A DNA stretch of 64,000 bases from Amphiscolops sp. MND2022 (GCA_964187785.1 OZ076413.1:61938001-62002000), one strand, 5' to 3'; counted from the first letter of the stretch, positions 15,149 through 62,844 are shown. Notes: a model not told the origin generated them from the sequence alone. Program-made: numbers and translations.

Positions 15149-15251
15149 GGTATCAAGTCAAATTCTCCTAGTCAAAACCTCCTAAGTTGAATTCTCCTTG
15201 ACTGAAATCTCCTAGGTTGAAATATCATAGACCAAATTCTCCTAGGTTGAA
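15149..15251 (+). repeat. Solo, degenerate TIR of the MULE family at 9569-12202
   Basis: GGTATCAAGTCAAATTCTCCTA followed by about six degenerate 14-15-bp AAATCTCCTA units; no partner end found. Confidence 0.65.
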
Positions 15252-15391
15252 AGAAGGATCCTTCTTGAAAAGTCAAGTGCTTTTAGGGGTCCTTTTCAGG
15301 GGTTGCATAGTAAATTCGATATGTTTGATTTAAAATATTATTGTGTAATTTATGCCCTCTGATAGAATAATAATTATTATTATATCCTAAC

Positions 15392-16074: not shown

Positions 16075-16119
16075 ATCCTAACTTTACTTGCAAAGAGTGA
16101 AGATATATTTGATTAACTA

Positions 16120-22100: not shown

Positions 22101-23331
22101 TCAGCCTATATTTAACTTTTGGTGTTTGTCGAATTTTATCATACAAAACATCGAAAACCACTGTTTGGAAGAGACAAACATGGCGATTCAGATAGTTTTG
22201 TAAATGGTGATGGACCCTAAATGGTTTTCGTATGTGACTCTGCTACTACTACAGAGAGCTGCTAAATACTCTCCTAAAAACTCATAAATGTGAGAATGTT
22301 CGAAAATGCCAGAACAAGAAACCACGAAGGCTTCATTGACGAACATTTACCACCAACGTTCAACGTTGATTCGTCTATATATTGATGAAGCCGACCTTTT
22401 TTCAGGGACATTTCGAAAATTGAGACATTTCGTGCCGTCGTAAAATTAGCCAAGGAGACAAAGTGATCGGGTGAGGTGAAGAGGGATATGAAAAACTCCA
22501 ACACCGACAGAAAAAAACCAAGAGCAGAAGAAACATGATAAAGCGTTAGCACATTTTTATGTTCAGCCTATATTTAACTTTTGGTGTTTGTCGAATTTTA
22601 TCATACAAAACATCGAAAACCACTGTTTGGAAGAGACAAACTTGGCGATTCAGATAGTTTTGTAAATGGTGATGGACCCTAAATGGTTTTCGTATGTGAC
22701 TCTGCTACTACTACAGAGAGCTGCTAAATACTCTCTTAAAAACTCATAAATGCGAGAATGTTCGAAAATGCCAGAACAAGAAACCACGAAGGCTTCATTG
22801 ACGAACATTTACTACCAACGTTCAACGTTGATTCGTCTATATATTGATGAAGCCGACCTTTTTTCAGGGACATTTCGAAAATTGAGACATTTCGTTCCGT
22901 CGTAAAATTAGCCAAGGAGACAAAGTGATCGGGTGAGGTGAAGAGGGATATGAAAAACTCCAACACCGACAGAAAAAAACCAAGAGCAGAAGAAACATGA
23001 TAAAACGTTAGCACATTTTTATGTTCAGCCTATATTTAATTTTTGGTGTTTGTCGAATTTTATCATACAAAACATCGAAAACCACTGTTTGGAAGAGACA
23101 AACTTGGCGATTCAGATAGTTTTGTAAATGGTGATGGACCCTAAATGGTTTTCGTATGTGACTCTGCTACTACTACAGAGAGCTGCTAAATACTCTCTTA
23201 AAAACTCATAAATGCGAGAATGTTCGAAAATGCCAGAACAAGAAACCACGAAGGCTTCATTGACGAACATTTATCACCAACGTTCAACGTTGATTCGTCT
23301 ATATATTGATGAAGCCGACCTTTTTTCAGGG
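19182..23331. repeat. Tandem array, 9 x ~462 bp, intronic
   Basis: Units start near 19182, 19644, 20106, 20568, 21030, 21492, 21955, 22417 and 22879; only scattered substitutions between copies. Confidence 0.97.
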
Positions 23332-38820: not shown

Positions 38821-39031
38821 CGGTGGTGTCAGAAGTAAATTCCGCTAGATCACAGGAAATTTTTGAACAGTAAGCTAATACATCAAGAGAACACGATGAA
38901 TCAGAGCACTATTGACTTTTCACGGCAATCAGCTAGTTAGCAGGGGGCAAAAGCACCGTAAGCTTGTTTAAGTAGGGAGACCCATTCAAGCAATTATTAC
39001 AATTGGTAGCGTCATGCTAAACAAAAAAGAA

Positions 39032-39739
39032 TGTAACGATCACCCCTCATGGACCAGAAAGTTGCTGAAAAATTCGTTCAACGACGGGACTATGTTGAAA
39101 ATTGCAACTTTACGCATAATTTGACCGTGTCTTTAGTGGAAGACCTGCCCAACGAAATGAAGAGGTCCAAAAGCCTAAGTGCTAGCTGGGAGACCACATA
39201 GAACAACGCGAACAAAAGAAGGATGCAATACAACCCTCAGAAAAAAATTCTTTTCAAACTGTTAATTGCTATTTTTTCACAGTTCAGTGAGCATATCATT
39301 GAGATATGTTGTAACAACGCAAAATGAGTCTTTGTGCGTACGAATGCTTGCGCCTTCCCGCCGACTGTCGTTAGTTAGTCAATTTTTGCTGTAATTAATC
39401 TGATTGTTGTAATGTATAGCTCGTGAGCTACTATTTTGCAATTTCTTGTACTTTCAAGAAATTCATCTTTGGCACCAACTTTTCATGTACGTTTTTAAAG
39501 GCTGCCTAAGCGGTAGTCTCGAAGACAAAGCATCATTCACGTTACTGATAGCAATTAAAGACTGAACCAGCCCGGCGAGTACTCTTTACGAGGCGAAACC
39601 GCCTTTTGACGGGACAGTTTTTGTCCCTGGAGGCAAAATGGACTCATGGTTATGGGCGCCTGTCCCGGGCAAATACCCATACCATGAGTTCCTCCATCTT
39701 CACCGACGGAGGCACGAGTGACGGGAGGTTTCCGTTACA
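39032..39739 (+). repeat. LTR-A (708 bp)
   Basis: TGTAACG...CGTTACA, a 7-bp terminal inverted repeat; the end is confirmed by the inverted fragment at 38592. Confidence 0.88.
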
Positions 39740-41426: not shown

Positions 41427-42289
41427 GGCGGAATGTAGCCGTGAACATCACACCATCACGACTGAGATGGAAGCGGTGCAAGATGAATTACGTAAAACAA
41501 CAGAAAAAAACCTTTAAAATCAAGAGATGCATGTGGGAAAAAGAGACGGACACCCAGGAACCGTTGTTAAACTTGTGGCCTGTGTCTCTTGCAAATAAAC
41601 ACTGCATGCCCAACTAAAACCCGGGGATTCCACCCCCCCCCCCAAAGACATCACCCACGACATTGATTGCCGACTAATTATTCGTGCCAAGAAGACCTAC
41701 ACGGGTCTTGAACGACAAGCAAATTACCCCCTGAACACATTCTATTTGAAATGTCGAAATGCGAGGTGGCTCAAGCTCCCTGCCCTCGCTTCAAAAAAAG
41801 GACCCACGGTGGCAAAGGACTCAAGTTTACACTAGCGTTAACGGTTCCGCCCATGCCCCCTAACATTGTTTTCGGTTCATTCAACTTCGAGCGCGAACCT
41901 ATCTAAATGGCTGCCCAACCCCACACTGGTGCTTGATGGTTACTGCCGCACGGTCAAGCGACTTGGTAGTACCAGAGACACTTCGCAGCTCTGAAGTACG
42001 TGTCCATCGCTCGTGTTGCGCACTTGCCCGAAGCGTCCTAATTTTTGTTCTCGTAAAATTTTCTTTACTTGCTTTTCATATCTTTTATGTGCTTTTCACC
42101 TTTTATCTCTGATTATTTTCTCAAAACCCCTAGCCTTTGGATTTGGTTACGACCATCATGGCGATTTTTCAGAGAGTCTCGAAAATATCATAGAGAATAC
42201 CAATCGCCAGAACAATCAAACACCAGGCAACAATTCTCAAGCAATGGACAACGGGTGACTGCACAAGTGCAGCCAGCGTGTCTCATAAA

Positions 42290-44294
42290 TATAGCTTATT
42301 ACCACCAACCTCGGTGACGGAATATCCCCTGCAATGGTCACTGGCTTGGCTGCCGTCCTAGCTCAAGTGTAGTCTCAAGAGCATGTTTCCATACTTTCTG
42401 TTTCGATCACTGCCTCTAATCCAGTTCATCGAAGATCCATGTCCTTCAGTAATGGTGTGTGGTCCGGACATGACTTAACCCACCACTTTTACGACGACCG
42501 CTCATCCCTTTTTTACGGATGGATTGCACGGAACAAGATCAAAGCCTGCAGCTGCACAGTCATCCACTGCCAACACTACGCCAGCCTAGTCCTCCGCGTG
42601 TCCCTGAGCCCACGGGCTCAAGTCCGCGCCCATCAGTCCCCACGTTCCCTGACTTATCTTTTGCTTCACCTTCTGAACAAACCGTGCTCACAGCCATGCT
42701 GGCTATTGCCAATAATGTCAACTGTGCGACTTTATACAACTCATGCAACGCTGGCCCACTTTGTCCAACTTGCTTCTACCGCATAACAAGCAACTCGTGA
42801 GCCATTCGCCTCCACAACAACGATTGGATCAACCAAGCACGTATGCCCTACCGCCGAATCATCAAGATCAACTCAGCACTTCGGCCTTTCATCCTATCTC
42901 AAATGACAAGCCAAGCATATCAGCGCCTCTGTAACAGTTGGACGTGGATCAGCCCCAACCCCCACAACGTGACTAGGACCTTGATGAATCCCGATTGTCC
43001 TCTAAAAAACGAAGCGACCACTCTCCTTCTTCGTGCTCGCAAACGTCACTGATTTCTACTGGCACGAAAACTAAGAGCCCATCCATCAAGCCGCCCCTGA
43101 TAAAAAGTCGACGGCGCGAACGGCGACGAAAGCCCCGGTGTCAAAACTGAACAAATTAAAGTCTGTGGTGTCGCGAGCATCCGTGCTGTCATCACCGCCA
43201 CCGCCGACACCTAATACTATTGGATCTAAAGGGAAACCCGAGAAACAGTTGACGGTAGAAGAGACTCTAAAAAAGTATCCCACAGACCACATAAAGATCG
43301 TCAACAGTGGCCTTACGGGTAACCCTTTAAGAAATCAGTCAATACCCTCGCCCGGAGAAACCACACGATACAAGGTAGCACCATTTCGTCCACCGCCGAA
43401 GGACACGCAGGGTTCATTAGTAACTCAGGACGCGAGGCGAGTTTGGGAGACCGCCGAACAGGTATTGGAAGAATGACACATAGCGGACGAGCTGCGCCCC
43501 TAGATGACGAGACCCAAAATGAAATCAAGCAGCTAAATACGACAGTGTTCATGAGCCGATTGCTGAGACCACATGAACACCAGATGCAGGAACCCAAATG
43601 GTTGACTCGGGCGGTGAACTTGCTGCCCTCTGTTGAAGACAACTACCTGGAGCCGTTGCCTTTGGATCCCCGGGATCAATGTATTGCTCGATCTCAGTTG
43701 GTAGAGGTAAAAACGTTCGAGATCAACAAGAGATACGCAGGCGATTTGGAGGCTCAAATACCTATGCCGAAAGATATGCTACAGCGCACGCGCTATGCCC
43801 TCCTAATTGACTCCACTTTTTCAAAGAACGTGCCCATCGGCAATGTTCCACCCGATGTGATTGAAGTATTGGTGACGATGTCTGATCCAACGATGAGGGG
43901 AACTTATAAAGAGCCACCACCCAAGGGAGTCATCATCTACAATGTGTTTGACCACATGACTTGCGAAAACTTTCTTTTGAAAACAGCCGCAACAGAACAC
44001 GTCGATCCAACCCGAGAAATGCGCACACAACTGATGGAATCGGTAAGGAAAATGGCCACGGCCATGAAGAAGACACAGCGAATTCTGTTGAAAAAGCTGA
44101 ATGTGCCGGAGTTCTTCGTCGCCCCACCAGGATTCAATCTCTGGCCGCCAGAATTGAGACAAATATTAAACCCGATGACAGAAGTTTGCCAGTATCGAGG
44201 AGTGGACTTTGCCATCTACGCACCAAACATACGAATGGACGGCAATGACCTACGCCCTACATGGTTGTCGCAAATGGGCGCCAAAGATCGGTAG
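42290..44294 (+). pseudogene. Accessory ORF-B of copy 1 (SGNH-like domain at ~43790-44290), truncated
   Basis: Protein-level homology to 54250-56450: NGV(W/L)SGHDLTHHF.DDR, LVT.DARR.WE.A, RYALLIDS, LRP.WLS.MG. Confidence 0.7.
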
Positions 44295-45059
44295 CATTGT
44301 GAAGACTAAAGCCGCAAGAAAAACTCGAAACTTGTGCCAAATACAAATGCAAAATGAAAGGCCCGAGTAAGGAAAGCTCAAGGGCTTTGTCTGCTTGACC
44401 TGGCCCATTTCAAACATTGTAGAAGCTTCAGGCAATTTCTAAGAAAACATGGTCAGATCCACTACACATTGAATGTGCAATTTTAGTTTACATTTCGTAC
44501 CGGTGTTGAGCATTGCTTGTATTTACCTGGTGCTTTTCGCTATTTTTGTTTTAGTTTCGATTCGTACAGCTATTGATTTGAACAAAAGGAACAAGAAGAA
44601 CAATGAAATGAAAGAAGGAACAAAAAAAAGAAAAGAACTCCTTTTCCCTAAATCGCAAGGTATAGTTGAGAGTTAGCTCTGCGATAAAAAAGTTTTTAAA
44701 CAGGAACAAGCTTGGAGTTCTTATCGCCGCTACCTAGTAGAGAAGTAGTGCGAAGCTCAAGAGCTTCGGGAAAGAAAAAATTCAAACCTCTCCTGTGACT
44801 GACCACGGCCACAAAAAAATATTTTCAATGGAACGGCAAAAAAACACGATGCAGCCATATGAACACAGCCGAAAAGAAATTTTCTACTGGCATCGTCTTT
44901 GACTTCTTCAGTTTAGCTCACGAAAAATAATGGTGTTATCGATCTATTGATGAGAAGATGCAGATAAACGATTTCCATGACGACGGCATACTAGAAGTAG
45001 CGCCCGACACAACGGCCTACGCTTGACGAGGACGCCAAGCAATAAAAACCCGGGGAGTA

Positions 45060-45780
45060 TGTAGCGATCACCCCTCATGGACCAGAAAGTTGCTGAAAAA
45101 TTCGTTCAACGACGGGCCTTTAATGAAATATGCAACTTTACGCATAATTTGACCGTGTCTTTATTCGAAAACTGCCCAACAAATTGTAGAGGTCCAAAAA
45201 CACAAGTGCTAGCTTTGAGAACCATATAACAACGCGAACGAAATAAAGCTGAAATACAACCCTCTGAAAAAGGACACTTTTTTCAAACTGGTCATTGCTA
45301 TTTTCTGACAGTTCAGTGATCATATCATTACAATATGTTGTGACAACGCAGAATGAGTCTCCCTTCGTAAGAAAACCTACGGTGCTCGCGTCCCCCCGTA
45401 GATTGTCGTTAGTTAGTCAATTTATGCTGTAATTATTCTGATTGTTGTAATGAATAGCTCGTGAGCTACTATTTTGCAATTTCCTGTACTTTGAAGAAAT
45501 TCATCTTTGGAACCAACTTTTATGTACGTTTTTGAAGGCTGTCTAAGTGGTAGTTTCGAAAACAAAACGGAATTTACGTTACTGATAGCAATTAAAGACT
45601 GGATCAGCCCAGCGAGTACTCTTTACGAAGCGAGACCGCCTTCTGACGGGGCAGTTTTTATCCCTGGAGGCAAAATGGACTCATGGTCATGGGCGCCTGT
45701 CACGGGCAAATACCCATACCATGAGTTCCTCCATCTTCACCGACGGAAGCACAAGTTTATATTCGCACTCCGTCTTGACA
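45060..45780 (+). repeat. LTR-B
   Basis: TGTAGCGATCACCCCTC start after the PPT; colinear with LTR-A, roughly 80-85% identical by eye; last ~25 bp divergent. Confidence 0.85.
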
Positions 45781-45849: not shown

Positions 45850-47000
45850 TTGCTCCGTGGCTGTAATTCTCTATTTTACAGGTATTTTTATTTTCGACCA
45901 CCCGCGGCCAACGAAGAAGCGCCCATTTCACCGGTGGAACTCAGATTAACTGAGGCGATATCCAAGGCCATGTCCAAGGAAGTTGCACCGTTGATTGCCA
46001 ATCGGGACTTGACGAGGGCCCGACATACGGTATACAAGGGCACCAAGGATGGTACAGTCGATGGTTGGCTTCCTGTGATGAAGCGATTTCTAGAAAGGGT
46101 GCACGCCAAGTGGACAAAGATCGACAAAGCAAGGGCTATCATCGACCGTTTGGAGGGAGAGGCAAGAAACTTCATTATCAACAAATGCGAACCCGAACGA
46201 GATTAACCAGATAAATTCTTCACCCTCATGGCTTGGGACGGGTGGCAATCGCAAGCATGTCCAACAAACCTTTATGTCCCGCGCCCAACAAGAAAAAGAA
46301 TACTGGATGCAGTTCCTGGATGTCCTGGAAGGCTTGCGCATCCACGGCTTCCCGGATGAGCTCATCACTGTGCGTCGTTATGAAATCCTGCAACGTTTCA
46401 TAGATGGAGTCAGCGATCCAACGCTACGACAAGAACTGACTGTGGTATACGCCGTAGGAAGCTATCTGACTAATCCACCTACGGTAGAATCATTGAGGTT
46501 TACAACGCGACAACTTCAACGACATCGACGAACGGCATCGAAACCTTATGACCACATGTATGCTATGAGATCAAGGCCCCATCTTTTCCTGTCAGAAAAA
46601 ATGGTCCATCCGGCACCAGGCTTGCCACAGAACATGCTGCCTCCAAACCCGGGACAGCGAGAGGCAAAGCCCCAAATGGCTCCACCAGGTCCGGCATCGG
46701 TAAAGCAGTCGCCCTCGCCGCAGCAACCAGCAAGAGTGATTCCCCAAGGAGCGTGTTTCAACTGTGTATTGCCCGGTCACATTGCACGAGAATGCCCAAA
46801 CAGAGATCAAGCAAGGAAACCGGTAGCTCGTGCTGTGCCTGACGACCGAGTGAATCTTTGTGAGAGCAATGTGGCTTCTGCATGTTCAGGCCCTCTATTC
46901 TGTGTCAATTGTGGCATGACCGAACATTCAGCATCGCAATGCCAGAACGTTTCAGTGCGAGAGGATTTGGCCTACAGCCTCTGGGCTGAACAACCACCTG
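45850..47000 (+). pseudogene. gag: gag with two CCHC zinc knuckles, 5'-truncated
   Basis: YKGTKDGTVDGWL capsid-like segment; CFNCVLPGHIAREC (~46750) and CVNCGMTEHSASQC (~46890). Confidence 0.88.
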
Positions 47001-47399
47001 CTCCTCAGACGCTAAGTGACAGCGAGATGGTTTTTATGTTGCGCCCAGCTGAAGTGGCTCATGTGACAACGCCCCTGACAATCACATGTGGTAAAATCCA
47101 AGTCCAAACAAGCCCGGAACCTACCACGTTTAACCTTTCTGGACGAACAATGATGTCAGTTCGACTATTGCTAGCGATTGAAAGAAAAACGCGCCCCGAG
47201 CATACCATCGATACCTTGATTGACAAGATTATCGCGAACGAGAACTGCCGGCAGTTGACCCTGCGCCAATCCGAGGAGTGGCAAGTGAAAGGAGTTACCT
47301 CGACGTACCACGCCTACTCTCCTATTCCAGTCAGAGTTTGTATAGATGGTGTTGACATGTGCTTCGAGGCAACGGTAATAACTGATGCATTCCCTCTGG

Positions 47400-50300
47400 A
47401 ATCTGCTTGGGAACGCAAGAGTTGCGTTGCTACAACATCGATACTCAAGAACCATCGGGTGAAGCGAGGATTGATGAGCGCGCGTCGCTCGTGGTATCAT
47501 TCGTGGTTCCAGACGCTGCTCAAGTGTTAATGCGTGGATTGGTAGATACTGCCTCGACAGTGTTAATTCTGCCCTTTTCTGCCAACAATCGACTAGCGGT
47601 GCACACTGGCACTATCCTTCGTCCATATGGTGTCGACCTATAAGCAGCAAATGGAAAGACTATCAAGACTTTTGGCCTCGCCGAGAAGGTCAATTTCCAG
47701 TTGGGAGGCTACGAGTTAGATACAAATTTTGTGGTTGTGGATGATGCCATGGGAGTAGAACACTTCCTCATAGGTAGGAACTTTCTGAGGGCCTACCAAG
47801 TCTTAGTGGACCTGACAGCGATGAAGGGCATCATCCGGGCCCCTCCGAACCCGTTTGGTATCATACGCACGCGCAGGTAAGTAGCGAGTAACCTAAAACC
47901 TCGGTGGCGATAGCACAGGACGTCGTCTTGCAGCCTTTTGAATGCGCCATTTTGCGTGCGAAATTGCTAGTAGACAACTTAGAACCTCTCTTGTTTCGAA
48001 CCGTGTTGATCAATTTCCAAATACCCAATCGCATGTTGAAAAATTCCATATTTTTAGAAGACACCGTGGCGACCGTGGGGGAGACAGGTTTCCTCTACGT
48101 CGGTTTAGGAGGATTGATCAGCAACGTGCAGCGGATAAAGAAGGGGACCCTTTTTGGAACCGCAGTTCCCGTGACGATGGTCCACAAGGCCATACCCCAA
48201 GTTGTCCCCGGACAAGAAACTGTATCTCAGCAGTCAAAGGCAAATTATGTTCAAAAAGAATACGAACAGATGAATATTAATTCTGAATATAGCTCTTCAT
48301 CTGAGTTTAAATTTTTGTCCCTTACCAACCCGTCAGAACTCGGTTTGTCGGAACGCGAAATAAAAAAACGCACCGATCCGGCGCTAATGGCCCCAATCCC
48401 GGGCCCCGAAGCACAACTCAACAAAGTGCGCTGTTTGTTGTGGGGTTCGGCTGCCAGTGACACGCTTAATGAGCTTTTGAACGAATTTGATGATCTTTTC
48501 ATGAAAAACAAGGCCAACATCGGCAAATGTAAAATCGTCATGCACCCGGTGAAAGTAGAGCCAGGCGCTGTACCCCACCGCGAAGGTGCACAAAGGATGT
48601 CAGGCAAAGCAGAGCGTGCCAATCAAGCAATTCGTCACCTACTGGCGCTGGGAATGATACAGCATTCTCTTTTCCAAGGGCAAGTGGTATTGTTATGGTC
48701 AAAAAGAAAAATGGTGAGCTGCGATTTTGTTGTGACTTTCGACCACTTAGTGAGGTGACCATTAAAGACGCTCATCCACTGCCGCGCATCGACGAAAGTT
48801 TTTCACGATTGGGTAAAGCAAAGATCTACACAAGCATCGATTTGGCCTGGGCATTCTGGCAAATTCCTGTCCGGAAAGCCGATCGTCAGAAAACTGCCTT
48901 CGCTTGTGAACTTGGACTATTTGAGGTGCGTCGCATGCCCTTTGGTATGTGCAATGCTTCGGCAACGTTTCAACGGGCGACAGCGCGAGCGCTACAAAGA
49001 ATTGTGAATTGCAAGGGGAGCATGGTAATGGCATACATTGATGACATTGTGATTGCTACTGAAACCATTGAAGATCATATGGACAGCCTGTGTGAAGTAT
49101 TCCATTGCCTACGTTAGGCAGGTTTCAAGATGAGAGTCTCCAAATGCGATTTCATGAAGTCTGAAATCAAATATTTGGGTCGAGTAGTTTCCGCAGATGG
49201 TATCAAGCCAGATCCGAAAGCTCTCAGCGAGCTGAGAGATTGGGATATCCCACGAACCAAAACAGAGCTACAGAGCTTTCTGGCTTCTGCCAATTAATAT
49301 CGCGACTTTATCCCTTGGCATGCGAAACTCGTAGCGCGCTACATGCAATCACCGTCACGGGCTCTTCATTTCTGTAGGGGGAGGAGCAGCAACGAGCTTT
49401 CAACAGCATCAACGTGGCGTAAATGGAAGCCACAGCCTTGGCACAACCAGACACCGAAGGAGAATTGAGAATTTGTCCTAGACACTGATGCCAGTGGCGT
49501 AGCCATTTCGGGTATTCTCCACCAGTGGCAAAGGCCACCTGAAAGTCGAAAGCTGCGACCGATTGTGTTTGGAAGTAAAAAATTGACTCCCACACAGGCC
49601 AAATACGGAGCCCCAAAGTTGGAAGTGTAGGCCGCGTACTTTTTTATCTTGACGAACCACAGCTATTTTTTTCCGCCAAGTTTACATTGAGAGTGGACAA
49701 TCAAGCACTTTCAGGGTTGAAGAAGTATTCAACGGACCAAGCGTTCATCGGCCGATGGATCATGGCTCTGGAGAAATGTCACTTCAGCATCGAGCATCGA
49801 CCCAGAACACAACATCGAAATACCGATGGTCTCAGCAAGAGAACCAACGATTACAAAAACAGGAAAGACAACTGAAAGGTCTTGCCTGCCCCCAACCGCC
49901 GAGAAATGTATTTCCTGTCCCAAGAAGAGTACGACAAGCTCCCAATGGCCCCATGGTTCGACGTCCATGGAAGAGGGATACCGGATCACCCCAATTTGCC
50001 TGTCCACCTACAGAAACTGACTAAACAGCCTCCACCTGGAACAACGGTAGCTGCCCCCGCGCAAAAGAACAAGCGAGGTAAGCAAAGTGCGATGATGCGC
50101 GACAAAGCGATGAGGGCTCCCCTGCCAACACTACCAACACCAAAATTGGCAATGCCTGCCGATCGATATCCAGAATATCCCCAAGATTGGTTGGAGAACA
50201 TGAGAAAGCTTACCTTTTACCCACACATGCTGCCGATGTGCCATCGAGAACCACCTACCCACTGATTGGGGAGGAGAAACAAGCCACTAACACAGCGCCG

Positions 50301-51680
50301 GAATACGTGAAACAAATAGCCTTCATGGTCAACAGTGTATCCGTGGAACTCCACGAACACTCTAAAACAGTTCATGGTTTGAAGGACTTATTGCTAGCGC
50401 AAATCGTCATTTCCATGTTTTGGCCATCAAGAAACTGGTGATGCAGGAGTCAATCGACCATGACATCTTTCCTGAAAACGTGCGTGCATTCGCCAAAAAC
50501 TATTACAAGCAGAAGAAGAACCTTCTGTTGATCAAAATCACAGGAGTGCTGTGCGTCAAGTATCCCAAGAGTCAAAGAGCACTGCATGAGCGTCCATGCA
50601 TAATCATGATGCCGCAGATGTATCAACACGAAATACTGTTCAAAGGTCATGATGCAATGGGGCACCGAGGCATTGCAAAGGTTCTAGCGAGAATACAGCA
50701 GCGCCACACCTGGCCAGGTATACGCCGAACTATTGGGCAGTATGTTAGCTAGTGTATAACGTGCCAGCAAGTGCGCGACAAGCCCGGTTACGTGCAATTT
50801 CACCTAAAGAACATTCAGACTGGTTATTTCAATGAGTTGGTGCAATATGACCACTTGAAAATTTGTGCATCTGATGATGGAAACACTGGGATAATGGTTA
50901 TCATTGACCATTTTTCAAAATTTGCAGATGAAGTGCCATGCAGCCATTATGAATACGATGCAGTAACCAACTCTAAGCTGCTATTGCAAACGTGGTTTAC
51001 CCGACACCGCACGCCAACAAGAATGCAATCAGATAACGCGCCCAACCTCACTGTAGAAGTATCTACCGAGTTCATGAAGGCGTCACAATTAACCAAAGTG
51101 ACCTCAACCAGTGGCCACCCAGGACCCAAGGGCTAGTGGAACGCCAAAACCGGACACTGCTGACCCTACTACGTGTGTTTTGTTCTCGACGAATGCGAGA
51201 CTGTGATCAGTTTTCAGACGAAGTGATGGGTGCGTATAACTCTACGCGCCATGCCACCACTAGATTTTCTCCTTATATGCTAACCAGAGGTTTCGAGAAA
51301 GCGATACCACTCACCTTTTCGTACCCTGAATTCGCCACTCAGTCATTTGAGTCACATGAGGCATATGTGGATCACGTCTTGGCCCGACAACAAGAAATTC
51401 ATGACTTCGTCCGACGCAACACCCTCCAAGCCCAACAACGACAGAAACACAAATACGATCGAGCTATTCGTGCCAAGGCATACGAGGTCGGTGAACCAGT
51501 GTGGGTATTCTGTCGATATATTCCACTGGAAGGTTCCCCAATTTGATGAGACTATGGCACGGTCCCCACAAAGTAGCACAAGTGCTACATGAAGGACGTG
51601 TTTACATGCTCGATACGGGTCAGAAGGTGCTCTCTGAGCGGCTAAAACCGCACCATGGTGGGCCGACAGAATGAGCCGCA
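47400..51680 (+). pseudogene. pol: pol (protease, RT, RNase H, integrase), disrupted
   Basis: GLVDTA protease motif (DTA at 47545-47553); LPRID, IDLAWAFWQI, MPFGMCNA and YIDD (49034-49045) in RT; DTDASG RNase H; HDAMGH...C-x2-C integrase zinc finger; MQSDNAP core; WHGPHKV GPY/F motif. Confidence 0.95.
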
Positions 51681-52619
51681 GTTCCAACGCACAATGGTGA
51701 AGTCGCTACAATTATGGACCCCGACCCAGAACAATCTCAAGACCAGGTGCCAGACGACGCTTCCCGACCCTCTTATCGTGGAGAAGAAACCAATATCAGG
51801 AGCCAGCAACGCCTCTTTGCCTTCCCGACAACGACACTGGATATACACCCGACTAGTATGCGCTCTGGCGGCAGTTGCCTTCATTGTCAACAATTTGACT
51901 ACTTATCAACTGAATCTGACAACAAAAGATCAGATGTGCTCCTATCAAGTGCACAAATCATCCCCAGCGAGAGTGCTGTCCTACCATCGCCCATGGATGA
52001 TCCCGCTCTTTTTCCGAAATGCCAATCTCACCATTATTAGCTATGGAGGTTCTGTTTTCAGAAAACGAAGCAGTACCAGAGGCGAGAGATGACACTCCAG
52101 ATCCCCCTATCCGTGTATTGACCGACAGTGTTGGCACTTGATTAGCCGGCACGTCTGCTCCATTACTGACGAATCCATCGCTCAGGGACATGTTAAGCAA
52201 CTTCTCTATTTGGCCACAGATATATAATCACTTCACCCCGGAAACTAGAGACGGTGACGCAAAATCGCCCATATCCGATGACGAGAAAGAACCTTCCTCC
52301 GTTGCGATGATTCCTGCCACTGCCACAACGGCAATTGACAAATCAATCCATGCTCTTAGGGGACAACAGAGCCGTAGACCGCGGGGACGTCCCCCATGAA
52401 GAGTGAAGCCACGTGCATCAATCTTACATGACCATCCTCTCAGAGGTGCTCTCAGAGGCACCCGCAAGAGAGGGCGTCACCGAGACCAGACCACCTCGCA
52501 CAACATCTACTGGGCCCGGTACTTCCACTCGTCCCCGCCGCACTTCATCCGTGGACACCGACTCGTCCGCTCCCAGCGCAGCAGTCACCCCAGATCAAGC
52601 GCCACCTCCAGAATCAACC

Positions 52620-53990
52620 AATGCTCGCTATGGCCTGCTGCGACGGAATCGAGTTTCCAAATATCGTTGTGGAACGTGTGGTCTGCGAAATTGTGAATGC
52701 AACTATATGATTCAGGCACGCTTCCCAATTAGACCACCGGGAGTACTGCTGACGAGCGAGAATAAGCCATTACCAGCAGATGGCATGGTCAGTCGCCTGG
52801 TCATCCGAGCCGGAAAGACTTATACCGGCTTACAGCGAAGCGTAGCTTCCTATCCGCTGCGACATATCTTTTCTAAAATGAAAGAATCCGCAATCGCAAA
52901 GGCCTCGTGCCCCAGATTCAAAATATAAACCCACGATCTTCGAGCCCTGGATTTCACATTATCCACAACAATCCCTCCCGTGCCCCCAAACATCGCCTTC
53001 GGTCCATTCAACTATGAGCGCGAACCCATCCAATTGGTACGCTGCATCACTGCCGACCTTTTGAATGACAGACACAACGTCATTGCTGCACCAGGAAATG
53101 TTTATTAGCCCGCGACCAACCGGTGGCTATTGATCACCGCTCAACGCGTGTCTGATGTGTTCGATCCTATAATCTTCAACACCTGTCTGGAGAGTTTATG
53201 GACGATGACCTCCCCTGAGAGGAACACTTGCTTCCACGTCATCGACTTATACCGTAGCAAAGTCAAGTTTGAATGGTGGTTGGAACTAATTGCCACAATT
53301 CTGTCGAACTTTTCGCGAATCCACTTCCTGGACGAGTGGACACACTCATTCTCTCAACCCGTGTCACTCCAATCTGCTCTGCACGCTCTTAATACATAGT
53401 CCGAAGCCAATATCGACAACCAGTCGTTGCCGCGATCCATATGGTTGGACTTGGGTGCCATTAAAGGCCTGCTTGCTGATGATCCTGGACAAGAAATAGT
53501 GTATCGTGGACCTCTAAGACCTAACTGGTCGATTACGTCCAATATGCTACAACGGATTTTTTACAGGCCCCCATCATATTGTTTTATGTTGCACCGCAGA
53601 TCTCGAGACTAACTCCGCAGCTCTCCGTTAAATAATCGTGAGCATGAAGCTGATGCTATCTTCCAACTCCGACCTGAAGTTGGCAGCACACTGACATTCC
53701 CTACGTCTTTGATCGACGGTCAGCTCCAAACTATTCACCTATTGATTACACGAGCCACACCCCAAGGCCCCATGCTGGCGGACACACTCTTTGCATGTCT
53801 CGAACAATTGAAAATTCTACTCGAACGCCTTGAGGCAATCGGATTCATTTTGCCATCGTCGATTCCGAACGCCCCATACGCAATCTTTTTGATTTTTACA
53901 CTTGTTTGATGGACACGTTTGCCGATACGCCCTTATCTGTGGTGTTCCACGATCGCATTTATGTCTCGATTGCGAGCGTCGCTAGCTTTC
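52620..53990 (+). pseudogene. Post-integrase ORF-A: Cys motif plus two macrodomain-like (TARG1/Poa1p-type) repeats
   Basis: CGTCGLRNCEC; repeat 1 LVRCITADL...WLLITAQ...FNTCLESL; repeat 2 IVLCCTADL...PEVGSTL...IHLLITR...LFACLEQLK...LMDTFADTPLSVVFH. Mostly one frame, with stops and short shifted segments. Motif match is by eye only. Confidence 0.62.
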
Positions 53991-54219
53991 CGTAAAGCCT
54001 TCGTTTTTGTAAGTTTATTAGTTAGGTTAGTTTAACTAGGTGTTTCACCGGCCTTAGGCCACCACCCTTATCTTTTCTTTTGTTATACGTATCTCATCAA
54101 TTTCTCTTGATATTACCTTTACTGAAACGCGTTATCTACGGCTCTATTGTTGATCCTTGTACGCATACATGCACTCTTTCTGAGACCTTGAAATAAACCA
54201 AGGAGACCATATTAGAGAA

Positions 54220-57200
54220 GAAGATATTCCTCCAAGGTCTACCGAGGATTTCCCTGCCATGGCCCAACGCATCTACGACACCGCCCGTGTCCAGCGGACT
54301 TCCCAAGTGATTTATTTTATTCGTGATCGTTTGGATCAGAGTCTTCCCCGGCCACTGTGGCTGGAGTGGCTGCCATCATCTCCCAGGTGGAGTCTCAGAT
54401 TCCAGCACCAATGCTCTATATGCATGACTTCCAGCTTCCTTGGTTTTCAACGATCAATGACCTTCCAGAACGGAGTGTTGTCGGGTCATGATCTGACCCA
54501 TCACTTCAATGACGACAGAGCATCTATCTCGTACAGCTCTGCAAGTGGTGGCGTGCCTCAGAATCGGTTGCTCCAAGTGCGAGCATGCCCACCTCCGCCA
54601 CCTCCTCCAGTAACAACATCTCAGCCGGCTGTGCGTGCTGGAGAGCCACCGGGCTCTCAGGTGTGACTGCCAGCTCCTGCTCCACAAGGTCTAGCCAACC
54701 GACCAATTTCAGAGCAAGCAGTGATATCGGCTCTTCAAGCCGTAGCAGTCAATCTATACTACTCCGATTTTATGCGTTCTATGGAACAATTTTGGCCCGA
54801 GTTGCGTCAAAACACCCTTCCCACAGTGACTATTCAAAATGAAAATGCTGCCACTACCCAACCAGCCATTACTGTTCCTCACGTCAATCCCTGATCTGAG
54901 CAACCTGGAGATTCCCGCACAGTGACGGTTGAGCGCAGCCGCTCTCCCTCACGCTCCACGTCTTCATTTCAAAACGGGGAGGAGAGTGCCGCCTCGCTTC
55001 CTGAAAAAGGAATGACCGCTCATCAACAAGGACGAGCACAAGCATGGCGTCCCCGCAAACTGCTCGGGAAAGCCCATCGACCAAGCCGCCACCCGACAAG
55101 AGAATCTCAAACGAACAAACAACGCCTCAAGGAACACCAGCATCTAACAGTAAGTCGAATCAACTGAACTCGGTGGTGTCGGAAGCATCCGTGCTTCCAC
55201 CACCACCGCCTGTCCAACCTAGCAAGCCACGGGGATTGCCTCAGCCAACATCCTCACAGTCAACGTCAAGAGAATCTCTGGAACAAAGATCAACGTCACG
55301 ACCTTCATCGTCGAAACAGCTGCCACAAGAACCCACAGTCGGTTATCAGGGCACACCACAAAGCCTAAGGACTGTAGAAGATATCATGGACGACTACCCC
55401 GACTTCAAGGTTAAGAATAGTGGACCAACGGGCCCCCATTCAAAACCCAGTCAAAAGAACTTTTACCAAGCAGCCTACATTCCTGAGTCCAATGCAAAAC
55501 AACAAAGGGAACCTAGTCACCAAGGACGCCCGACGAATATGGGAATCGGCCGTGATAGTGTCTTCTGAGTGGCTCTTCGAGAAAAATATGTGCCCGCCCA
55601 GCGACGAACAGCATGCCGCACTGAAGAAGTCCAGCGCATCTGTATTCATGAGCCGCCCGCTGCGTGCTGACCGCTGACCATACCCCGACAACTGAGCAGC
55701 CATGGCTGGGGAAGGCCATGAACATGCTCCCGAATGTGGAAGATAACTATTTGGACGCGCTAACCATCGACCCGCAGTGGCATTTCGAAGAGGTGTACTT
55801 GCTTTCCCTTGGAGAGACTTTTGAAGTGAATTTCAGATATGCCCGAGACCTAGAAGCTTAGCTCTCTATGCCCAAAGAAAGGTTGCAGCGTGCGCGCTAC
55901 GCCCTACTGATAGACTCACCGTTTCTGAAAAACATTTCTATTGACAATGTGCTGGCGGATGTAATGGTTGTCACCTTGCCACTGTCGCGGATCACAGAAA
56001 TGGTGGACGTTATGGTCACAATGATCGATCCAGAGATGACCGGTACGTTCAAAGAACCTCCTTCGCGCCATGTTATAATCAGCAATATATGTCTTTGACC
56101 ATGGCGTGTGAAGGTCTGATGGCACAAGTAGCGAACGTGGAGCTTTTGCAGCCCACTCCTGCACAACGAGCAACATTTAGAAATGCCACCATTAACCTTG
56201 CCAGAGCGATGGAAGAAGTGCAAACTATTCTGAGAGGCAAACTGAAAGTGCCCGTGATTTTTGTGTCACTCCTCCTAGATTCTGTCATTGGCGTTCTGCA
56301 CTGCAGCGATTTGTGTATCTCGTGACCGAGATCTGCCAATGCTGAGAGGTGGAATTCGTGATCTGCGCTCCCAATCTACGCATCTGCAGTGGAGAATTGC
56401 GCCCTTCATGGTTGTCTTATATGGGCTACAATGCTTCAGTATCCAAAGTATTGCAATCCGTGGAAAAGACCGGTAACTCACAACTCACCATCGACTACGC
56501 GATTTATTTCAATCACGGCATTAGGATGGCACTGTTAGTGTTTAACGAGGAAGGAGAGAGGCGAATTCCCGAACCTAGTGAAACAGAATGCGAGGCTATT
56601 CGTGTCAATAACTGGATGGAGCGCGCGCGCTCCACAGGTGAAAAGACATCGATTAAGACGGACGTAGCCGAAATCACCGCGACGATGGGAAACGTACCCA
56701 ATGAAAGAGAGGTAGAGCGTGCAATTCCTCGAGTCCAGTTTGCCAAGGACGTCTGCGTCGACAAGCTCTCATTGGGAATGAAATTTATAGCAGCCCAGTT
56801 GACAAGTTAGACGCAGGCGGAGATCCAAGCGTTCAGCAGCACATAAGATGGATGGTATCAAAGAAGGCAGACCACCACGATCGCAGACATTGCAAAGGAG
56901 TTAGGAATGTCGGTGGATTAATTCGCCATATGCCTGGGTTTGGGTTAGAGTCCCGATGTGATCCGTGGTGAATTGGGACTGGATGAAAAGTATATCGTCT
57001 AGATTAGTAAAATAGTAGGAGGCTTGCAACTGAACGAAGTGATTGCCCTCATGCTGGCCTTCGGGCAAAAGCGTTTTGTCGCTGGACCAATGATGATCCT
57101 AGCTGACCTAGTAACGGAATGCAATCTAGTATGGCTGTTCTCCTATCTGGTAATAGAGCGAGGAGCCATCACCGGGCTAAAAGTCCTTGCCGAACTGTTG

Positions 57201-58277
57201 AAGAAAAAAGACGCCCAAGATTACCCAGCGCATCTTGAATCAATGAAGCTATCCCTGTATCACTGGATATATTGCACTTTCGTTTTTGCTTCCAGGTTGG
57301 TTGTCGGCATTGACAAGACGCAGCCGTTATATGATGGACGCCAATTAGTATCTGAGGTGGCAGGATTTCTCACACCTAATCAATTGGCTGATATCACTCT
57401 AGCAGAAGATTTGATACCGGTGTTAGCACCCGTGCTAACTCCGATTTATGGCGAACCGGGAATCCTGCGTTATCCAACCAAACCTCTACGGCGAGCATCT
57501 GAAACACCAACTGTATCAAATCTCACTTTCCTCAAAAACGTGAAGCTGCATGATTATCAGCAAATGTTGGAACGCGGCCTGTACATGCATGTACCCCGCA
57601 TGTACACCACCATCAAGTCGGAAATACAGCAGGAGGAAAACTTGATGGGCATACTAAAGGCGAGAACCAAAAAGGCATGCCCGCTTCCAAGAGAGTATGG
57701 ACCAGTCAACTGGTATAACGCCCCCCTGGACAATCAAGGTATACCCGTCCGTTTCGACTGGAGTTTGACTTCGCAACGGAAGTACGTAACCTAATGCCTC
57801 CAAGGCATGGGTGGTCATACAAGTCGAAACTACAATTTCCAAAGAATAAAGATCCCGGCGAGATACTGGCGAGGGCCCATAGGCCTCATCAGGGCGAAAC
57901 CAAGTACTCTAGTTGAGCGTGGTCTTGCTGAACAGTTTGCCTATAGAAACCACTACAAGTTAGGCGAATGGATGTCCCGTACATTGGAGGAGCGACAAGG
58001 ACGTCTAAAGGGAAATATCGTACCTCCGCAGTTAGCGCCAGTGTGGAACCCTGAGGCCCGAGTCACAATGGGCAATGATATGCCAGCCGAAACATGGTAC
58101 CACATTATGGAATTACTAAGCGATCCCCTTGGACCTGAGTGGGAAGCCTCACGCCAGATCATTGAACAAGAAAATAGGGATAACTGGTCAAGAGCCTGCG
58201 GGCTCTGGGGCAGACCAGACTTGCGCCCAAAAATAAGCCCTAAACAGAAACGAGCGATCACCACCCGGAACGGATAA
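54220..58277 (+). pseudogene. Accessory ORF-B of copy 2 (~1300 codons; P/S-rich region, SGNH-like domain at ~55895-56460, unknown C-terminal region)
   Basis: Chain of plus-strand ORFs (54259, 55044, 55420, 55868, 56349, 57024, 57807) linked by stops and frameshifts; N-terminal half is homologous to copy 1. Confidence 0.68.
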
Positions 58278-58344
58278 ATTTAACGGTAACGGCCACAAAA
58301 AAATTTTTCCATGAAAGGCCGAAAAGAACATATAAAGGCCTGGA

Positions 58345-58690
58345 TTGCTCACGACAGGCAGTAACAAGCCGAGAACGGCCAAAGTCGGGGCAATATCTAA
58401 GGCTCAAAATATAAAAGGTGGACCCTTCGAGCTTTGTGAACTCCGGCTGGTTGCAAAAAATTTGAAAAAATTGAAGGGGGGACCCTTTGGAGACATGAAA
58501 AAATTTCCCATAAAATTTTTTACATGAGATTTTTGAACAGTGTCACAGTGCCGAAAATTGTAAAAGGGGGACCCTTTGCGACTTTTTAACATCCATTGTG
58601 TTGCAAAATATTGAAACAAATGAAGGGGGGACCCTCTGATGCAATCCAAAAAACTTCAAAAAAAGTCGCATCTTGCCAAAAAAAGTGGGG
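58345..58690 (-). mobile_element. Helitron-like repeat fragment inserted in the 3' UTR of copy 2 (duplicated at 61349-61694)
   Basis: AACAAGCCGAGAACGGCCAAAGTCGGGGCAATATCTAAGGCTCAAAA matches the reverse complement of 27890-27940; GGGGGGACCC subrepeats match 27440-27740. Confidence 0.65.
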
Positions 58691-59128
58691 CTAAGGTGGG
58701 ATCTTTAGTGTGTTTTCGAGGTTGTGGACGTCTGTTTTGTTTTTTCTTTTCGTTCTGAGGTTGGAGTTGTTGAGGTTTGAAGTTGTTGAGGTTTCAGGTT
58801 GTTGACGAATGAACAAAAAAGTGGACCTTTCGTGTAAAAAAAAAACTACCCACTGTAATAGTCGGGCACATTTTCTACTAAAATGCGCCGACTAAAAATA
58901 GATACCATTGCTGTATAAGATTCGTACACGAAGCTTTATAACTGTGATCGAAAAGCAGCAATGCTGGGTCAATGACGTTTTTGACGACCAACTCGACGAC
59001 GTCTCAATATCAACTCGACGACGGCTCGATGACAACAACCCCCCCGAGGGACGGATATGATCCTCTGGAACCTCGACGAATCAGTCACCTACTTGACGGG
59101 GACGTCAAGCATAGACCCCAGGGAGTGA

Positions 59129-59828
59129 TTTAACGATCACCTGCCGAGCCAAAAAATTTGTGAAAATTTCGTTCGAAGGACTAGATTTTCGCTGTACCCA
59201 GTGCTGAAAGAGTAATATTACGCAAAGGGTTACCGTGTCTTTACCAAAAGACCCTGAGAATTGAAACGGCTCAGAGCAAAAAAGACAACATCCGAACAAG
59301 ACGACAGCAAAACATCATGGTCATTGTCAGAGAAAAGACTCAATTTCAGCCAATACAGACTGAACTTTGTTCCAACCGGCACTTTTATTAGCAAATCGTC
59401 ACAAAATGTTGTGATTACCTAAATTGAGTTAGTTGGCTTAAGCAAGCTTCCGTTGTTGTGTCCTCAGCTAATTTTTGCCAAATTGTGCTATTTATGCGGT
59501 AAATTGCTTGTTTTTTTGTTGTATTAGCTGGTGAGGTACTGATTTTTGACATACCCTGTAACAACGAGAGAACAGAAATTTCCTTATCCACGTCCTTATT
59601 TTAAAGGCTGTCTAAGCGGTAGTTCCGAGGAGAAAGCGAAAATGACGTTACTGACGGCAATTAAAGACTAGATAGATCAGGCCGGCAAGCACTTCACAAG
59701 GAGCAGAATCCTCCTCTGACTGGACAGTTTTTACACGGAGGAGGCAAAATGGGCTCTTGGTCATGGACGCCTGTCCCGGGCAAATACCCTTATCATGTGT
59801 CCCTCCAACTCTTATGGCCACGGTGACA
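59129..59828 (+). repeat. LTR-C (degenerate 3' LTR of copy 2; duplicated at 62133-62832)
   Basis: CTTGACGGGGACGTCAAGC...GGGAG then TTTAACGATCAC, parallel to CTTGACGAGGACGCCAAGC...GGGGAG then TGTAGCGATCAC at 45060; 3' half matches LTR-A/B; ends in GTGACA. Confidence 0.78.
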
Positions 59829-62800
59829 ATGGTGAGAAGTATAGAAAAGTATACCAGTATATATATATAGGCAGACCACCACGATCGCAGACATTGCAAA
59901 GGAGTTAGGAATGTCGGTGGATTAATTCGCCATATGCCTGGGTTTGGGTTAGAGTCCCGATGTGATCCGTGGTGAATTGGGACTGGATGAAAAGTATATC
60001 GTCTAGATTAGTAAAATAGTAGGAGGCTTGCAACTGAACGAAGTGATTGCCCTCATGCTGGCCTTCGGGCAAAAGCGTTTTGTCGCTGGACCAATGATGA
60101 TCCTAGCTGACCTAGTAACGGAATGCAATCTAGTATGGCTGTTCTCCTATCTGGTAATAGAGCGAGGAGCCATCACCGGGCTAAAAGTCCTTGCCGAACT
60201 GTTGAAGAAAAAAGACGCCCAAGATTACCCAGCGCATCTTGAATCAATGAAGCTATCCCTGTATCACTGGATATATTGCACTTTCGTTTTTGCTTCCAGG
60301 TTGGTTGTCGGCATTGACAAGACGCAGCCGTTATATGATGGACGCCAATTAGTATCTGAGGTGGCAGGATTTCTCACACCTAATCAATTGGCTGATATCA
60401 CTCTAGCAGAAGATTTGATACCGGTGTTAGCACCCGTGCTAACTCCGATTTATGGCGAACCGGGAATCCTGCGTTATCCAACCAAACCTCTACGGCGAGC
60501 ATCTGAAACACCAACTGTATCAAATCTCACTTTCCTCAAAAACGTGAAGCTGCATGATTATCAGCAAATGTTGGAACGCGGCCTGTACATGCATGTACCC
60601 CGCATGTACACCACCATCAAGTCGGAAATACAGCAGGAGGAAAACTTGATGGGCATACTAAAGGCGAGAACCAAAAAGGCATGCCCGCTTCCAAGAGAGT
60701 ATGGACCAGTCAACTGGTATAACGCCCCCCTGGACAATCAAGGTATACCCGTCCGTTTCGACTGGAGTTTGACTTCGCAACGGAAGTACGTAACCTAATG
60801 CCTCCAAGGCATGGGTGGTCATACAAGTCGAAACTACAATTTCCAAAGAATAAAGATCCCGGCGAGATACTGGCGAGGGCCCATAGGCCTCATCAGGGCG
60901 AAACCAAGTACTCTAGTTGAGCGTGGTCTTGCTGAACAGTTTGCCTATAGAAACCACTACAAGTTAGGCGAATGGATGTCCCGTACATTGGAGGAGCGAC
61001 AAGGACGTCTAAAGGGAAATATCGTACCTCCGCAGTTAGCGCCAGTGTGGAACCCTGAGGCCCGAGTCACAATGGGCAATGATATGCCAGCCGAAACATG
61101 GTACCACATTATGGAATTACTAAGCGATCCCCTTGGACCTGAGTGGGAAGCCTCACGCCAGATCATTGAACAAGAAAATAGGGATAACTGGTCAAGAGCC
61201 TGCGGGCTCTGGGGCAGACCAGACTTGCGCCCAAAAATAAGCCCTAAACAGAAACGAGCGATCACCACCCGGAACGGATAAATTTAACGGTAACGGCCAC
61301 AAAAAAATTTTTCCATGAAAGGCCGAAAAGAACATATAAAGGCCTGGATTGCTCACGACAGGCAGTAACAAGCCGAGAACGGCCAAAGTCGGGGCAATAT
61401 CTAAGGCTCAAAATTTAAAAGGTGGACCCTTCGAGCTTTGTGAACTCCGGCTGGTTGCAAAAAATTTGAAAAAATTGAAGGGGGGACCCTTTGGAGACAT
61501 GAAAAAATTTCCCATAAAATTTTTTACATGAGATTTTTGAACAGTGTCACAGTGCCGAAAATTGTAAAAGGGGGACCCTTTGCGACTTTTTAACATCCAT
61601 TGTGTTGCAAAATATTGAAACAAATGAAGGGGGGACCCTCTGATGCAATCCAAAAAACTTCAAAAAAAGTCGCATCTTGCCAAAAAAAGTGGGGCTAAGG
61701 TGGGATCTTTAGTGTGTTTTCGAGGTTGTGGACGTCTGTTTTGTTTTTTCTTTTCGTTCTGAGGTTGGAGTTGTTGAGGTTTGAAGTTGTTGAGGTTTCA
61801 GGTTGTTGACGAATGAACAAAAAAGTGGACCTTTCGTGTAAAAAAAAAACTACCCACTGTAATAGTCGGGCACATTTTCTACTAAAATGCGCCGACTAAA
61901 AATAGATACCATTGCTGTATAAGATTCGTACACGAAGCTTTATAACTGTGATCGAAAAGCAGCAATGCTGGGTCAATGACGTTTTTGACGACCAACTCGA
62001 CGACGTCTCAATATCAACTCGACGACGGCTCGATGACAACAACCCCCCCGAGGGACGGATATGATCCTCTGGAACCTCGACGAATCAGTCACCTACTTGA
62101 CGGGGACGTCAAGCATAGACCCCAGGGAGTGATTTAACGATCACCTGCCGAGCCAAAAAATTTGTGAAAATTTCGTTCGAAGGACTAGATTTTCGCTGTA
62201 CCCAGTGCTGAAAGAGTAATATTACGCAAAGGGTTACCGTGTCTTTACCAAAAGACCCTGAGAATTGAAACGGCTCAGAGCAAAAAAGACAACATCCGAA
62301 CAAGACGACAGCAAAACATCATGGTCATTGTCAGAGAAAAGACTCAATTTCAGCCAATACAGACTGAACTTTGTTCCAACCGGCACTTTTATTAGCAAAT
62401 CGTCACAAAATGTTGTGATTACCTAAATTGAGTTAGTTGGCTTAAGCAAGCTTCCGTTGTTGTGTCCTCAGCTAATTTTTGCCAAATTGTGCTATTTATG
62501 CGGTAAATTGCTTGTTTTTTTGTTGTATTAGCTGGTGAGGTACTGATTTTTGACATACCCTGTAACAACGAGAGAACAGAAATTTCCTTATCCACGTCCT
62601 TATTTTAAAGGCTGTCTAAGCGGTAGTTCCGAGGAGAAAGCGAAAATGACGTTACTGACGGCAATTAAAGACTAGATAGATCAGGCCGGCAAGCACTTCA
62701 CAAGGAGCAGAATCCTCCTCTGACTGGACAGTTTTTACACGGAGGAGGCAAAATGGGCTCTTGGTCATGGACGCCTGTCCCGGGCAAATACCCTTATCAT

Positions 62801-62844
62801 GTGTCCCTCCAACTCTTATGGCCACGGTGACAATGGTGAGAAGT

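Follow-up and report, generated by a model that had tools for sequence, protein, structure and literature searches.

SGNH esterases have been captured by several classes of retroelements, which raises the question of whether such domains are kept for catalysis or for binding. The locus described here poses this question in a pointed form. At two places in the window, i.e., the whole stretch of 64,000 nucleotides that was analysed, a first-pass annotation recognized an SGNH/GDSL-hydrolase-like domain in which the catalytic His is replaced by Arg, and assigned it to an accessory ORF of a Gypsy element. What is this domain, is it still an enzyme, and what could it do for the element that carries it?

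Two Decayed Copies in the Window

Both copies are decayed pieces of an extra ORF of 1,430–1,550 amino acids that follows gag-pol in a clade of Gypsy LTR retrotransposons. Upstream of copy 2, the decayed gag-pol extends from 45898 to 53995 on the + strand, with a CCHC knuckle, reverse transcriptase (RT) and integrase identified by the Pfam models zf-CCHC, RVT_1 and rve and by mapping against a natural copy. The extra ORF of copy 2 (54169–58271, + strand) matches a natural member of 1,491 amino acids by tblastn at 57–78% identity, in five frame segments that contain 12 stops. It is laid out as a small N-terminal domain, a linker rich in P, S, T and Q, the SGNH-like domain and a helical C-terminal part, and is followed on the same strand by a 3′ untranslated or LTR-like end (58891–59837) that matches the 3′ terminus of unbroken copies at 72% identity. 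Copy 1 belongs to another subfamily. The remains of its extra ORF (42193–44279, + strand; 42–52% identity to the same 1,491-aa member) lie in an internally deleted element, between a 5′ LTR-like repeat at 39028–39719 and a 3′ LTR-like repeat at 45056–45756, both on the + strand and 86.5% identical to each other.

The domain itself occupies 55898–56462 (+ strand) in copy 2, where it is 66–77% identical, piecewise, to an unbroken natural copy, the predicted structure of which matches SGNH hydrolases. The motifs of copy 2 are spread over all three forward frames; the reading frame is broken near 56090, 56101 and 56266, and stops lie upstream at 55859 and inside the domain at 56343. Block I reads I-D-S (55910–55918), with Ser at the nucleophile position, a register obtained with seven of nine structures, and Ile in place of the Gly of GDS. 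The block II region, TLPLSRI (55973–55993), is devoid of the oxyanion Gly in the register suggested by the block table in PMC10792757. Block III corresponds to 56072–56102, where VIISN is followed, in another frame, by FDH with its conserved Asp-His pair. The block V region reads SGELRP (56388–56405) ahead of the SYMGY helix, and the Arg codon at 56400–56402 takes the position of the catalytic His, in a register that puts Arg on His exactly in 9 of 15 structures and is off by one in four. In copy 1 (43794–44294, + strand), block II is shortened and the C-terminal helix is cut off: the open frame begins at 43323 and ends at 44294, with the last helix incomplete, and some 13 residues are missing at block II. 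I-D-S lies here at 43806–43814 and DLRP at 44247–44258, with the Arg codon at 44253–44255.

The first-pass annotation had thus located I-D-S correctly in both copies, and its replacement of the catalytic His by Arg was recovered in SGELRP as well as in DLRP. Its other motifs stood in part. The strand containing two prolines exists in copy 2, but as TPPRF in the next frame and not in "VIFVS"; the block III motif VII(Y/S)N..DH is present, but its Asn is probably not the oxyanion Asn of SGNH proteins; and in block V, likened to DG.HP, Arg does stand at the position of His, whereas the D is two residues out of register. Purifying selection on the family of both copies, together with the predicted SGNH fold, shows that the domain is not a chance feature.

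The window holds further repeats. Positions 56865–59840 and 59869–62844 form a direct duplication of 2,976 nt with 99.97% identity, which adjoins a run of N near 62850 and is either an assembly artefact or a very recent tandem copy. Nine units of 462 nt form a tandem array at 19182–23575, and minisatellites of 15 and 16 nt occur in both orientations at 9546–16077. Fragments at 594–3446, weakly similar (24%) to an RT/RNase H region, are probably the remains of another retroelement.

A Large and Recently Active Gypsy Clade

Searching the 1.07-Gb eukaryote assembly with copy 1 returned about 2,900 candidate places for the domain (2,903), and 144 of the 147 that were scored are free of stops, many of them in open frames of 1,470–1,550 amino acids. 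A second subfamily, with 47% identity in the domain, has no stop in any of its 150 scored matches, the frames being of 1,430 amino acids, and a third, at approximately 33–35% identity, gave 95 matches at E ≤ 1e-100 in frames of up to 1,450 amino acids. In the copies examined from these three subfamilies, the extra ORF has the same orientation as the Gypsy pol (protease, RT, RNase H, integrase) and lies downstream of it, at a distance of 230–310 nt up to the likely ATG, which bears out the accessory-ORF location proposed at the outset. The order of domains is that of Ty3/Gypsy elements (zf-CCHC, RVT_1, RT_RNaseH, Integrase_H2C2, rve), with a DTGS protease motif and terminal repeats. The two ends of one copy are identical at all 163 of the 163 bases compared, which indicates that the family moved recently.

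Unbroken extra ORFs consist of the small N-terminal domain, the P/S/T/Q-rich linker, the SGNH-like domain at about residues 590–785, the helical C-terminal part and a low-complexity tail. They have no Pfam match, their best 19-residue hydropathy is 1.7–2.3 and falls in one conserved segment, and no clear env feature (signal peptide, transmembrane anchor or fusion-protein homology) was found in them. More distant relatives, at 24–36% identity, were drawn from 150 of the 238 proteins at E ≤ 0.001 in a representative search and from a further search, and none of them is informatively named. At least two of them were not found in this assembly (best matches at 36% and 32%), searches for metagenome loci of the distant relative P0263 returned none, and no RNA record carrying the element was listed.

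Several other properties of these elements deserve mention. In two subfamilies, a pyrimidine run and an AG precede the ATG of the extra ORF by 10–12 nt (L029, approximately 6520–6543; L084, approximately 7910–7936), and splicing of a subgenomic RNA is probably how the extra protein is expressed; copy 2 of the window (54170–54200) has changes in this signal as well as in the ATG. Gag and pol form a single frame of about 3,300 codons (L029:1–6312 with L031:2383–6000; window 51900–53995). About 900 residues past the integrase core are 36–58% identical between subfamilies and match no Pfam or NCBIfam model. Residues ~60–150 of the extra ORF (window 54260–54530) form the small N-terminal domain, which ends in a GHDLT motif, is 34–43% identical in distant lineages and has a pN/pS of 0.09.

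Selection on the extra protein was estimated at two depths. Within one subfamily (23 copies), the SGNH-like domain has a pS of 0.084 and a pN of 0.0096; between subfamilies, dS ranges from 1.8 to saturation and dN from 0.27 to 0.53 (dS 2.7 and dN 0.47 in one comparison). For eight unbroken copies, the pN/pS ratios are 0.09 within the domain, 0.06 upstream and 0.12 downstream of it, and 0.25 in the linker. The whole extra ORF can be aligned over about 750 residues, at 28% identity. The extra protein is thus under purifying selection, and the element needs it.

An SGNH Fold Recognized in the Predicted Structure

Comparisons of sequences gave no lead to the origin of the domain. The SGNH families of Pfam (PF13472, PF00657, PF17182) yielded no match at E ≤ 1 for 16, 7 and 92 proteins, and searches of Pfam, NCBIfam and PDB sequences with the extra-ORF proteins found no meaningful known family. 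The domain profile compared with seven canonical SGNH ORFs of the same genome by profile-profile and HMM methods scored 16.9, against 17.4 for the reversed control, so that no local donor can be named. The ESM Atlas returned no usable match for the domain; bacterial GTPase-like clusters obtained there with a longer part of a distant relative were rejected, their scores (≤ 0.81) being at chance level.

The structure of the domain was predicted with AlphaFold2 from a natural unbroken copy (L009:1591–2460) and an alignment of 92 rows. The model (pLDDT 94.2, pTM 0.92) has an alternating beta/alpha core, in which strands 61–65, 82–86, 118–122, 179–182 and a short one at 213–214 alternate with helices. 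Among 48,161 representative chains, 34 matched at Z ≥ 8. The best match is PAF-acetylhydrolase (Z 11.3, rmsd 3.9, 186 residues aligned), with which an ordered N-terminal extension of the model also aligns (residues 7–248); TesA/TAP reaches Z 10.0 (rmsd 3.0, 155 aligned), and the OSK domain of Oskar ranks 44th with Z 7.7 (rmsd 4.1, 157 aligned). Judging by title or known family, we take the best 50 matches to be SGNH-type esterases and acyltransferases. Twelve of these 50 are proteins of the SGNH table in PMC10792757. Foldseek returned no row at E ≤ 0.001 against the PDB, where the best SGNH row has an E of 7.5e-3, and two phage GDSL rows against BFVD (E 2e-4 and 1e-3), the better one a phage lipase/acylhydrolase. 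Since models that lack a clear Foldseek match typically reach Z 7–8, the case for an SGNH fold rests on the Z of 11 and on the uniformity of the match list. On this predicted structure, the domain almost certainly has the SGNH fold, that is, a flavodoxin-like alpha/beta/alpha architecture with a parallel sheet. This fold had been claimed from the motif order, with AlphaFold/Foldseek and the unbroken copies named beforehand as the check; the model matches SGNH structures with Z up to 11.3, and neither another fold nor a canonical triad turned up.

The C-terminal part folded alone has a mean pLDDT of 49 and is confident only at residues ~100–280, all helical, and no structural match was found for it (best Z 4.8; Foldseek E ≥ 0.44). 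A poor model without a match indicates neither a new nor a known fold.

Fate of the Catalytic Positions

To place the canonical residues, the block positions given in Table 2 of PMC10792757 were transferred gap-free from the points at which each structural alignment begins and ends. Ile65 takes the place of the block I Gly in seven of nine structures, which makes Ser67 the nucleophile position, and the counterpart of the catalytic His is Arg227 in 9 of 15 structures, Pro228 in four and residue 230 in two, some of these structures being of the same protein. Residue counts are based on 256 stretches aligned from 279 proteins, in rows that are not independent and include decayed fragments, whereas lineage counts are based on 30 clusters at 55% identity. 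At position 227, 138 of 154 protein rows have Arg (Cys in 5, His in 3, Gln in 2, another residue in 6); by lineage, this position is Arg in 16/20 and His in 0/20. At the DNA level, all 85 of 85 stretches encode Arg at the block V site, copy 1 of the window and one other locus being counted twice. Arg for His, first noticed in the two window copies, is therefore the state of the whole family, unbroken copies included.

Ser67 is found in 133/145 rows and 12/16 lineages. Gly precedes the block I Asp in 0/16 lineages. The block II oxyanion Gly is present in 0/22 lineages, which have Leu, Cys or Phe instead, and the block III oxyanion Asn in 1/27, with F, I or L before the conserved Asp, both registers following from motif spacing. 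At the acid position, Asp occurs at His-3 in 3/20 lineages and at His-2 in 8/19. From this spacing, the oxyanion Gly, the oxyanion Asn and the acid Asp appear to be lost, and the Asn of VII(Y/S)N probably sits on the first Gly of GxND. A kept Ser with the other four positions lost does not occur among the 12 class/group combinations in the PMC10792757 table.

Asp126 and His127 are each conserved in 25/27 lineages (His127 in 152/161 rows), P-P-G in 23–24 of 26 and W190 in 21 of 26. Altogether, the conserved set comprises D66-S67-T68, N123, D126-H127, P184-P185-G186, W190, N218 and R227-P228, which, from what is known of TesA structures, presumably corresponds to the old active site and its acyl groove. 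The charge of the domain is balanced: counts of K+R against D+E in six lineages are 19/18, 21/20, 18/20, 16/16, 18/19 and 23/17, i.e., neutral in five of the six lineages counted and without a basic surplus.

The three His rows among the 154 are two short singleton fragments and one row inside an otherwise Arg-bearing cluster. In a tree of 66 rows, thinned of near-copies above 85% from the 153 that cover the site, all three are nested in Arg clades and two are sisters; none has Asp at His-3. We read them as decay of CGY codons, with five Cys and two Gln at the same place, and the two sisters could be a small reverted lineage. The Arg codon (window 44253 and 56400) is CGT or CGC in 85/85 stretches and 14/14 groups, and was, in a first test, alone among 18 invariant sites in having only one class of third base. 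Editing or read-through was rejected as an explanation, since two of six other Arg sites are similarly uniform; the uniformity is probably inherited.

Relation to Known SGNH Domains

No published account of this Gypsy extra ORF was found in the searchable literature, which leaves out Repbase and most subscription papers, and nothing on it was found in PMC6431247 and PMC6338049. That extra ORFs of retroelements can carry SGNH domains, and that dead GDSL derivatives exist, is already published (PMC5408684). The Vesta LTR retrotransposons of bdelloid rotifers likewise have a separate sense ORF after pol that encodes SGNH/GDSL instead of env; this ORF3 of approximately 1.3 kb, found by HHpred, retains all invariant catalytic residues (PMC5408684). 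In contrast, the Gypsy domain makes up only a portion of a 1.45-kaa ORF, has kept only the Ser, and has no link to SGNH profiles at the sequence level. The GDSL derivatives of Athena-L are also retroelement-borne SGNH domains without catalytic residues, but they belong to Penelope-like elements and were grouped with PC-esterases (PMC5408684). Ngaro-like elements similarly bear an extra SGNH ORF of unproven function on their 3′ side; they differ as tyrosine-recombinase elements whose SGNH domain is recognisable by CDD (10.1101/2021.08.05.455354). The ORF1p esterase of the LINE ZfL2-1 (PDB 4C1B) is another retrotransposon SGNH domain, with a possible role in lipid binding or membrane targeting, but it has an active triad and oxyanion hole, the gag-like position of an ORF1 and a basic surface (PMC3905857); the structure 4C1B, which is domain-swapped, is absent from the best 50 structural rows.

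Outside retroelements, OSK of Oskar (PDB 5A4A, PF17182) shares a non-catalytic SGNH fold and matches the model with Z 7.7; unlike the Gypsy domain, to which it has no sequence match, it belongs to an insect host gene and has lost the Ser while keeping the block II Gly (PMC10792757, PMC7250577). PAF acetylhydrolase Ib and E. coli TesA/TAP (PDB 1BWP, 1WAB, 1IVN), the best structural matches (Z 11.3–11.4 and 10.0), differ by their full Ser-His-Asp triad and are only 10–12% identical in sequence to the Gypsy domain.

The same genome carries other SGNH-bearing elements. An unrelated Gypsy family (pol 29–37% identical; loci L047, L053 and L082/L083, G000:C7:61.29–61.31 Mb and C9:46.90 Mb; LTR-like repeats of ~1.5 kb, 95% identical) encodes, fused in frame downstream of the integrase, an SGNH esterase in which all canonical motifs are present. 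In LINE-type elements (L055, L059, L062, L064, L086), an SGNH esterase ORF1 stands before the endonuclease-RT ORF, and in L086 the esterase, endonuclease and RT lie within one open frame of 1,179 amino acids.

A Candidate Non-Catalytic Ligand-Binding Module

Canonical esterase activity is probably absent from the domain, and its reading as a pseudo-esterase is supported. The earlier interpretation stands as regards the SGNH fold, Arg for His and the Gypsy extra ORF, but its registers of blocks III and V needed correction, and the role that it offered, binding of RNA or lipid during particle assembly, is a hypothesis. The module works like a pseudo-SGNH protein: it lies in the SGNH fold and has the hallmarks neither of a catalytic SGNH hydrolase nor of OSK. 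We tentatively propose that it may be a captured SGNH esterase turned into a non-catalytic ligand-binding module of the ~1.45-kaa accessory protein, and that the ligand is perhaps an anionic lipid or a similar small ligand. The combination of a serine-capped helix end and an arginine is a typical anion site. The old active site could thus survive as an anion-binding pocket, in which the Ser-Thr helix cap is kept and Arg replaces His, with the conserved Asp-His and PPG-W surrounding the former acyl groove. This pocket would hold a phospholipid head group or a fatty-acid carboxylate without cutting, and would tie the accessory protein, and thereby the particle or RNP of the element, to membranes, as proposed for the ZfL2-1 esterase. 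That esterase is a poor and slow enzyme that binds negatively charged phospholipids and not oligo(A) (PMC3905857). We favour a non-cutting lipid pocket because the Ser and the Arg of the putative anion site are conserved and because the ZfL2-1 esterase binds anionic phospholipids while cutting slowly. Several observations speak against it: a basic surplus is lacking, in contrast to the Arg- and Lys-rich face of the ZfL2-1 esterase (PMC3905857); Ser, Asp and His are all conserved, as a rewired enzyme would also show; Foldseek gave no PDB row at E ≤ 0.001; and three of the 154 rows carry His.

The domain could also bind no ligand and serve as a structural or docking module. It would then pack on the helices of the C-terminal part, form oligomers, or attach to Gag or to a host factor, and its conserved polar residues would act as helix caps and in internal hydrogen bonds. 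This is rather unlikely in our opinion, yet several results agree with it: conservation in the flanks equals that in the domain (pN/pS 0.06 upstream, 0.12 downstream), the whole ORF is alignable (28% identity over ~750 residues), the ordered N-terminal extension aligns with PAF-AH, and structural roles are known for Asp-Ser-Thr and the block III Asp (PMC10792757). An Arg exactly at the position of His, together with a kept Ser, in lineages of 25–35% identity is better accounted for by a retained pocket. The same source describes OSK as an established non-catalytic RNA-binding SGNH domain, and its place in the structural match list (Z 7.7) speaks for an OSK-like module that would package or localise the element RNA. 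Such a function seems improbable, however, in view of the 44th rank of OSK, well below PAF-AH and bacterial esterases, and of the OSK Pfam model, which did not report the domain family in the genome at E ≤ 10, the 10 examined of its 22 matches being LINE-type esterases. The pattern of loss is moreover opposite, with Ser kept and Gly lost in the domain, and Ser lost and Gly kept in OSK (PMC10792757). The lack of a basic surplus gives no support to OSK-like RNA binding, and the Gag of the element already carries CCHC knuckles.

Retained catalysis would require a rewired enzyme, whether esterase, acyltransferase or phosphoesterase, that uses the kept Ser with the block III Asp-His pair, or Arg as an oxyanion or phosphate clamp. 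The conservation of Ser (133/145 rows), His127 (152/161 rows) and Asp126 (25/27 lineages) suits this idea, as does the loss of Ser in OSK, the known dead case, and single losses of Gly, Asn or Asp are tolerated in SGNH enzymes (Table 2, PMC10792757). Conversely, the block V His is kept in all 29 non-OSK entries of that table, both oxyanion donors besides the Ser backbone appear lost, and His127 lies, in the model, in helix 124–130, two residues past the oxyanion position and so presumably facing another side; we hold a rewired enzyme to be as improbable as an OSK-like function. Decidedly doubtful is an SGNH esterase turned into a new active or ligand-gated site, in which Ser is kept, the catalytic His has moved to block III (Asp-His) and Arg acts on phosphate-bearing lipids, and which replaces env for membrane access or cell-to-cell movement. 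Finally, the blank Pfam, NCBIfam and PDB sequence searches and a profile comparison no better than its reversed control are what one would expect of a generic flavodoxin-like fold, a model artefact or a functionless relic. These are hardly credible, since the best 50 structural rows are of SGNH type, the D-S and x-P motifs coincide with blocks I and V, and the strongly purifying selection contradicts a relic.

Concluding Remarks

The Gypsy clade described here is large and recently active, and its SGNH-like domain is under strong selection across lineages of 25–35% identity, with apparently four of the five canonical positions lost. If the domain is dead as an enzyme, a non-catalytic function alone would be enough to retain a captured SGNH esterase, and the family would offer a small, well-folding domain for finding that function. 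Such domains can escape profile searches, and the SGNH cargo of transposons is therefore probably undercounted. Should the domain instead prove to hold a new active or ligand-gated site, it would represent a replacement of env in very successful elements, carried by a large accessory protein for whose remaining domains no match among solved folds was found.
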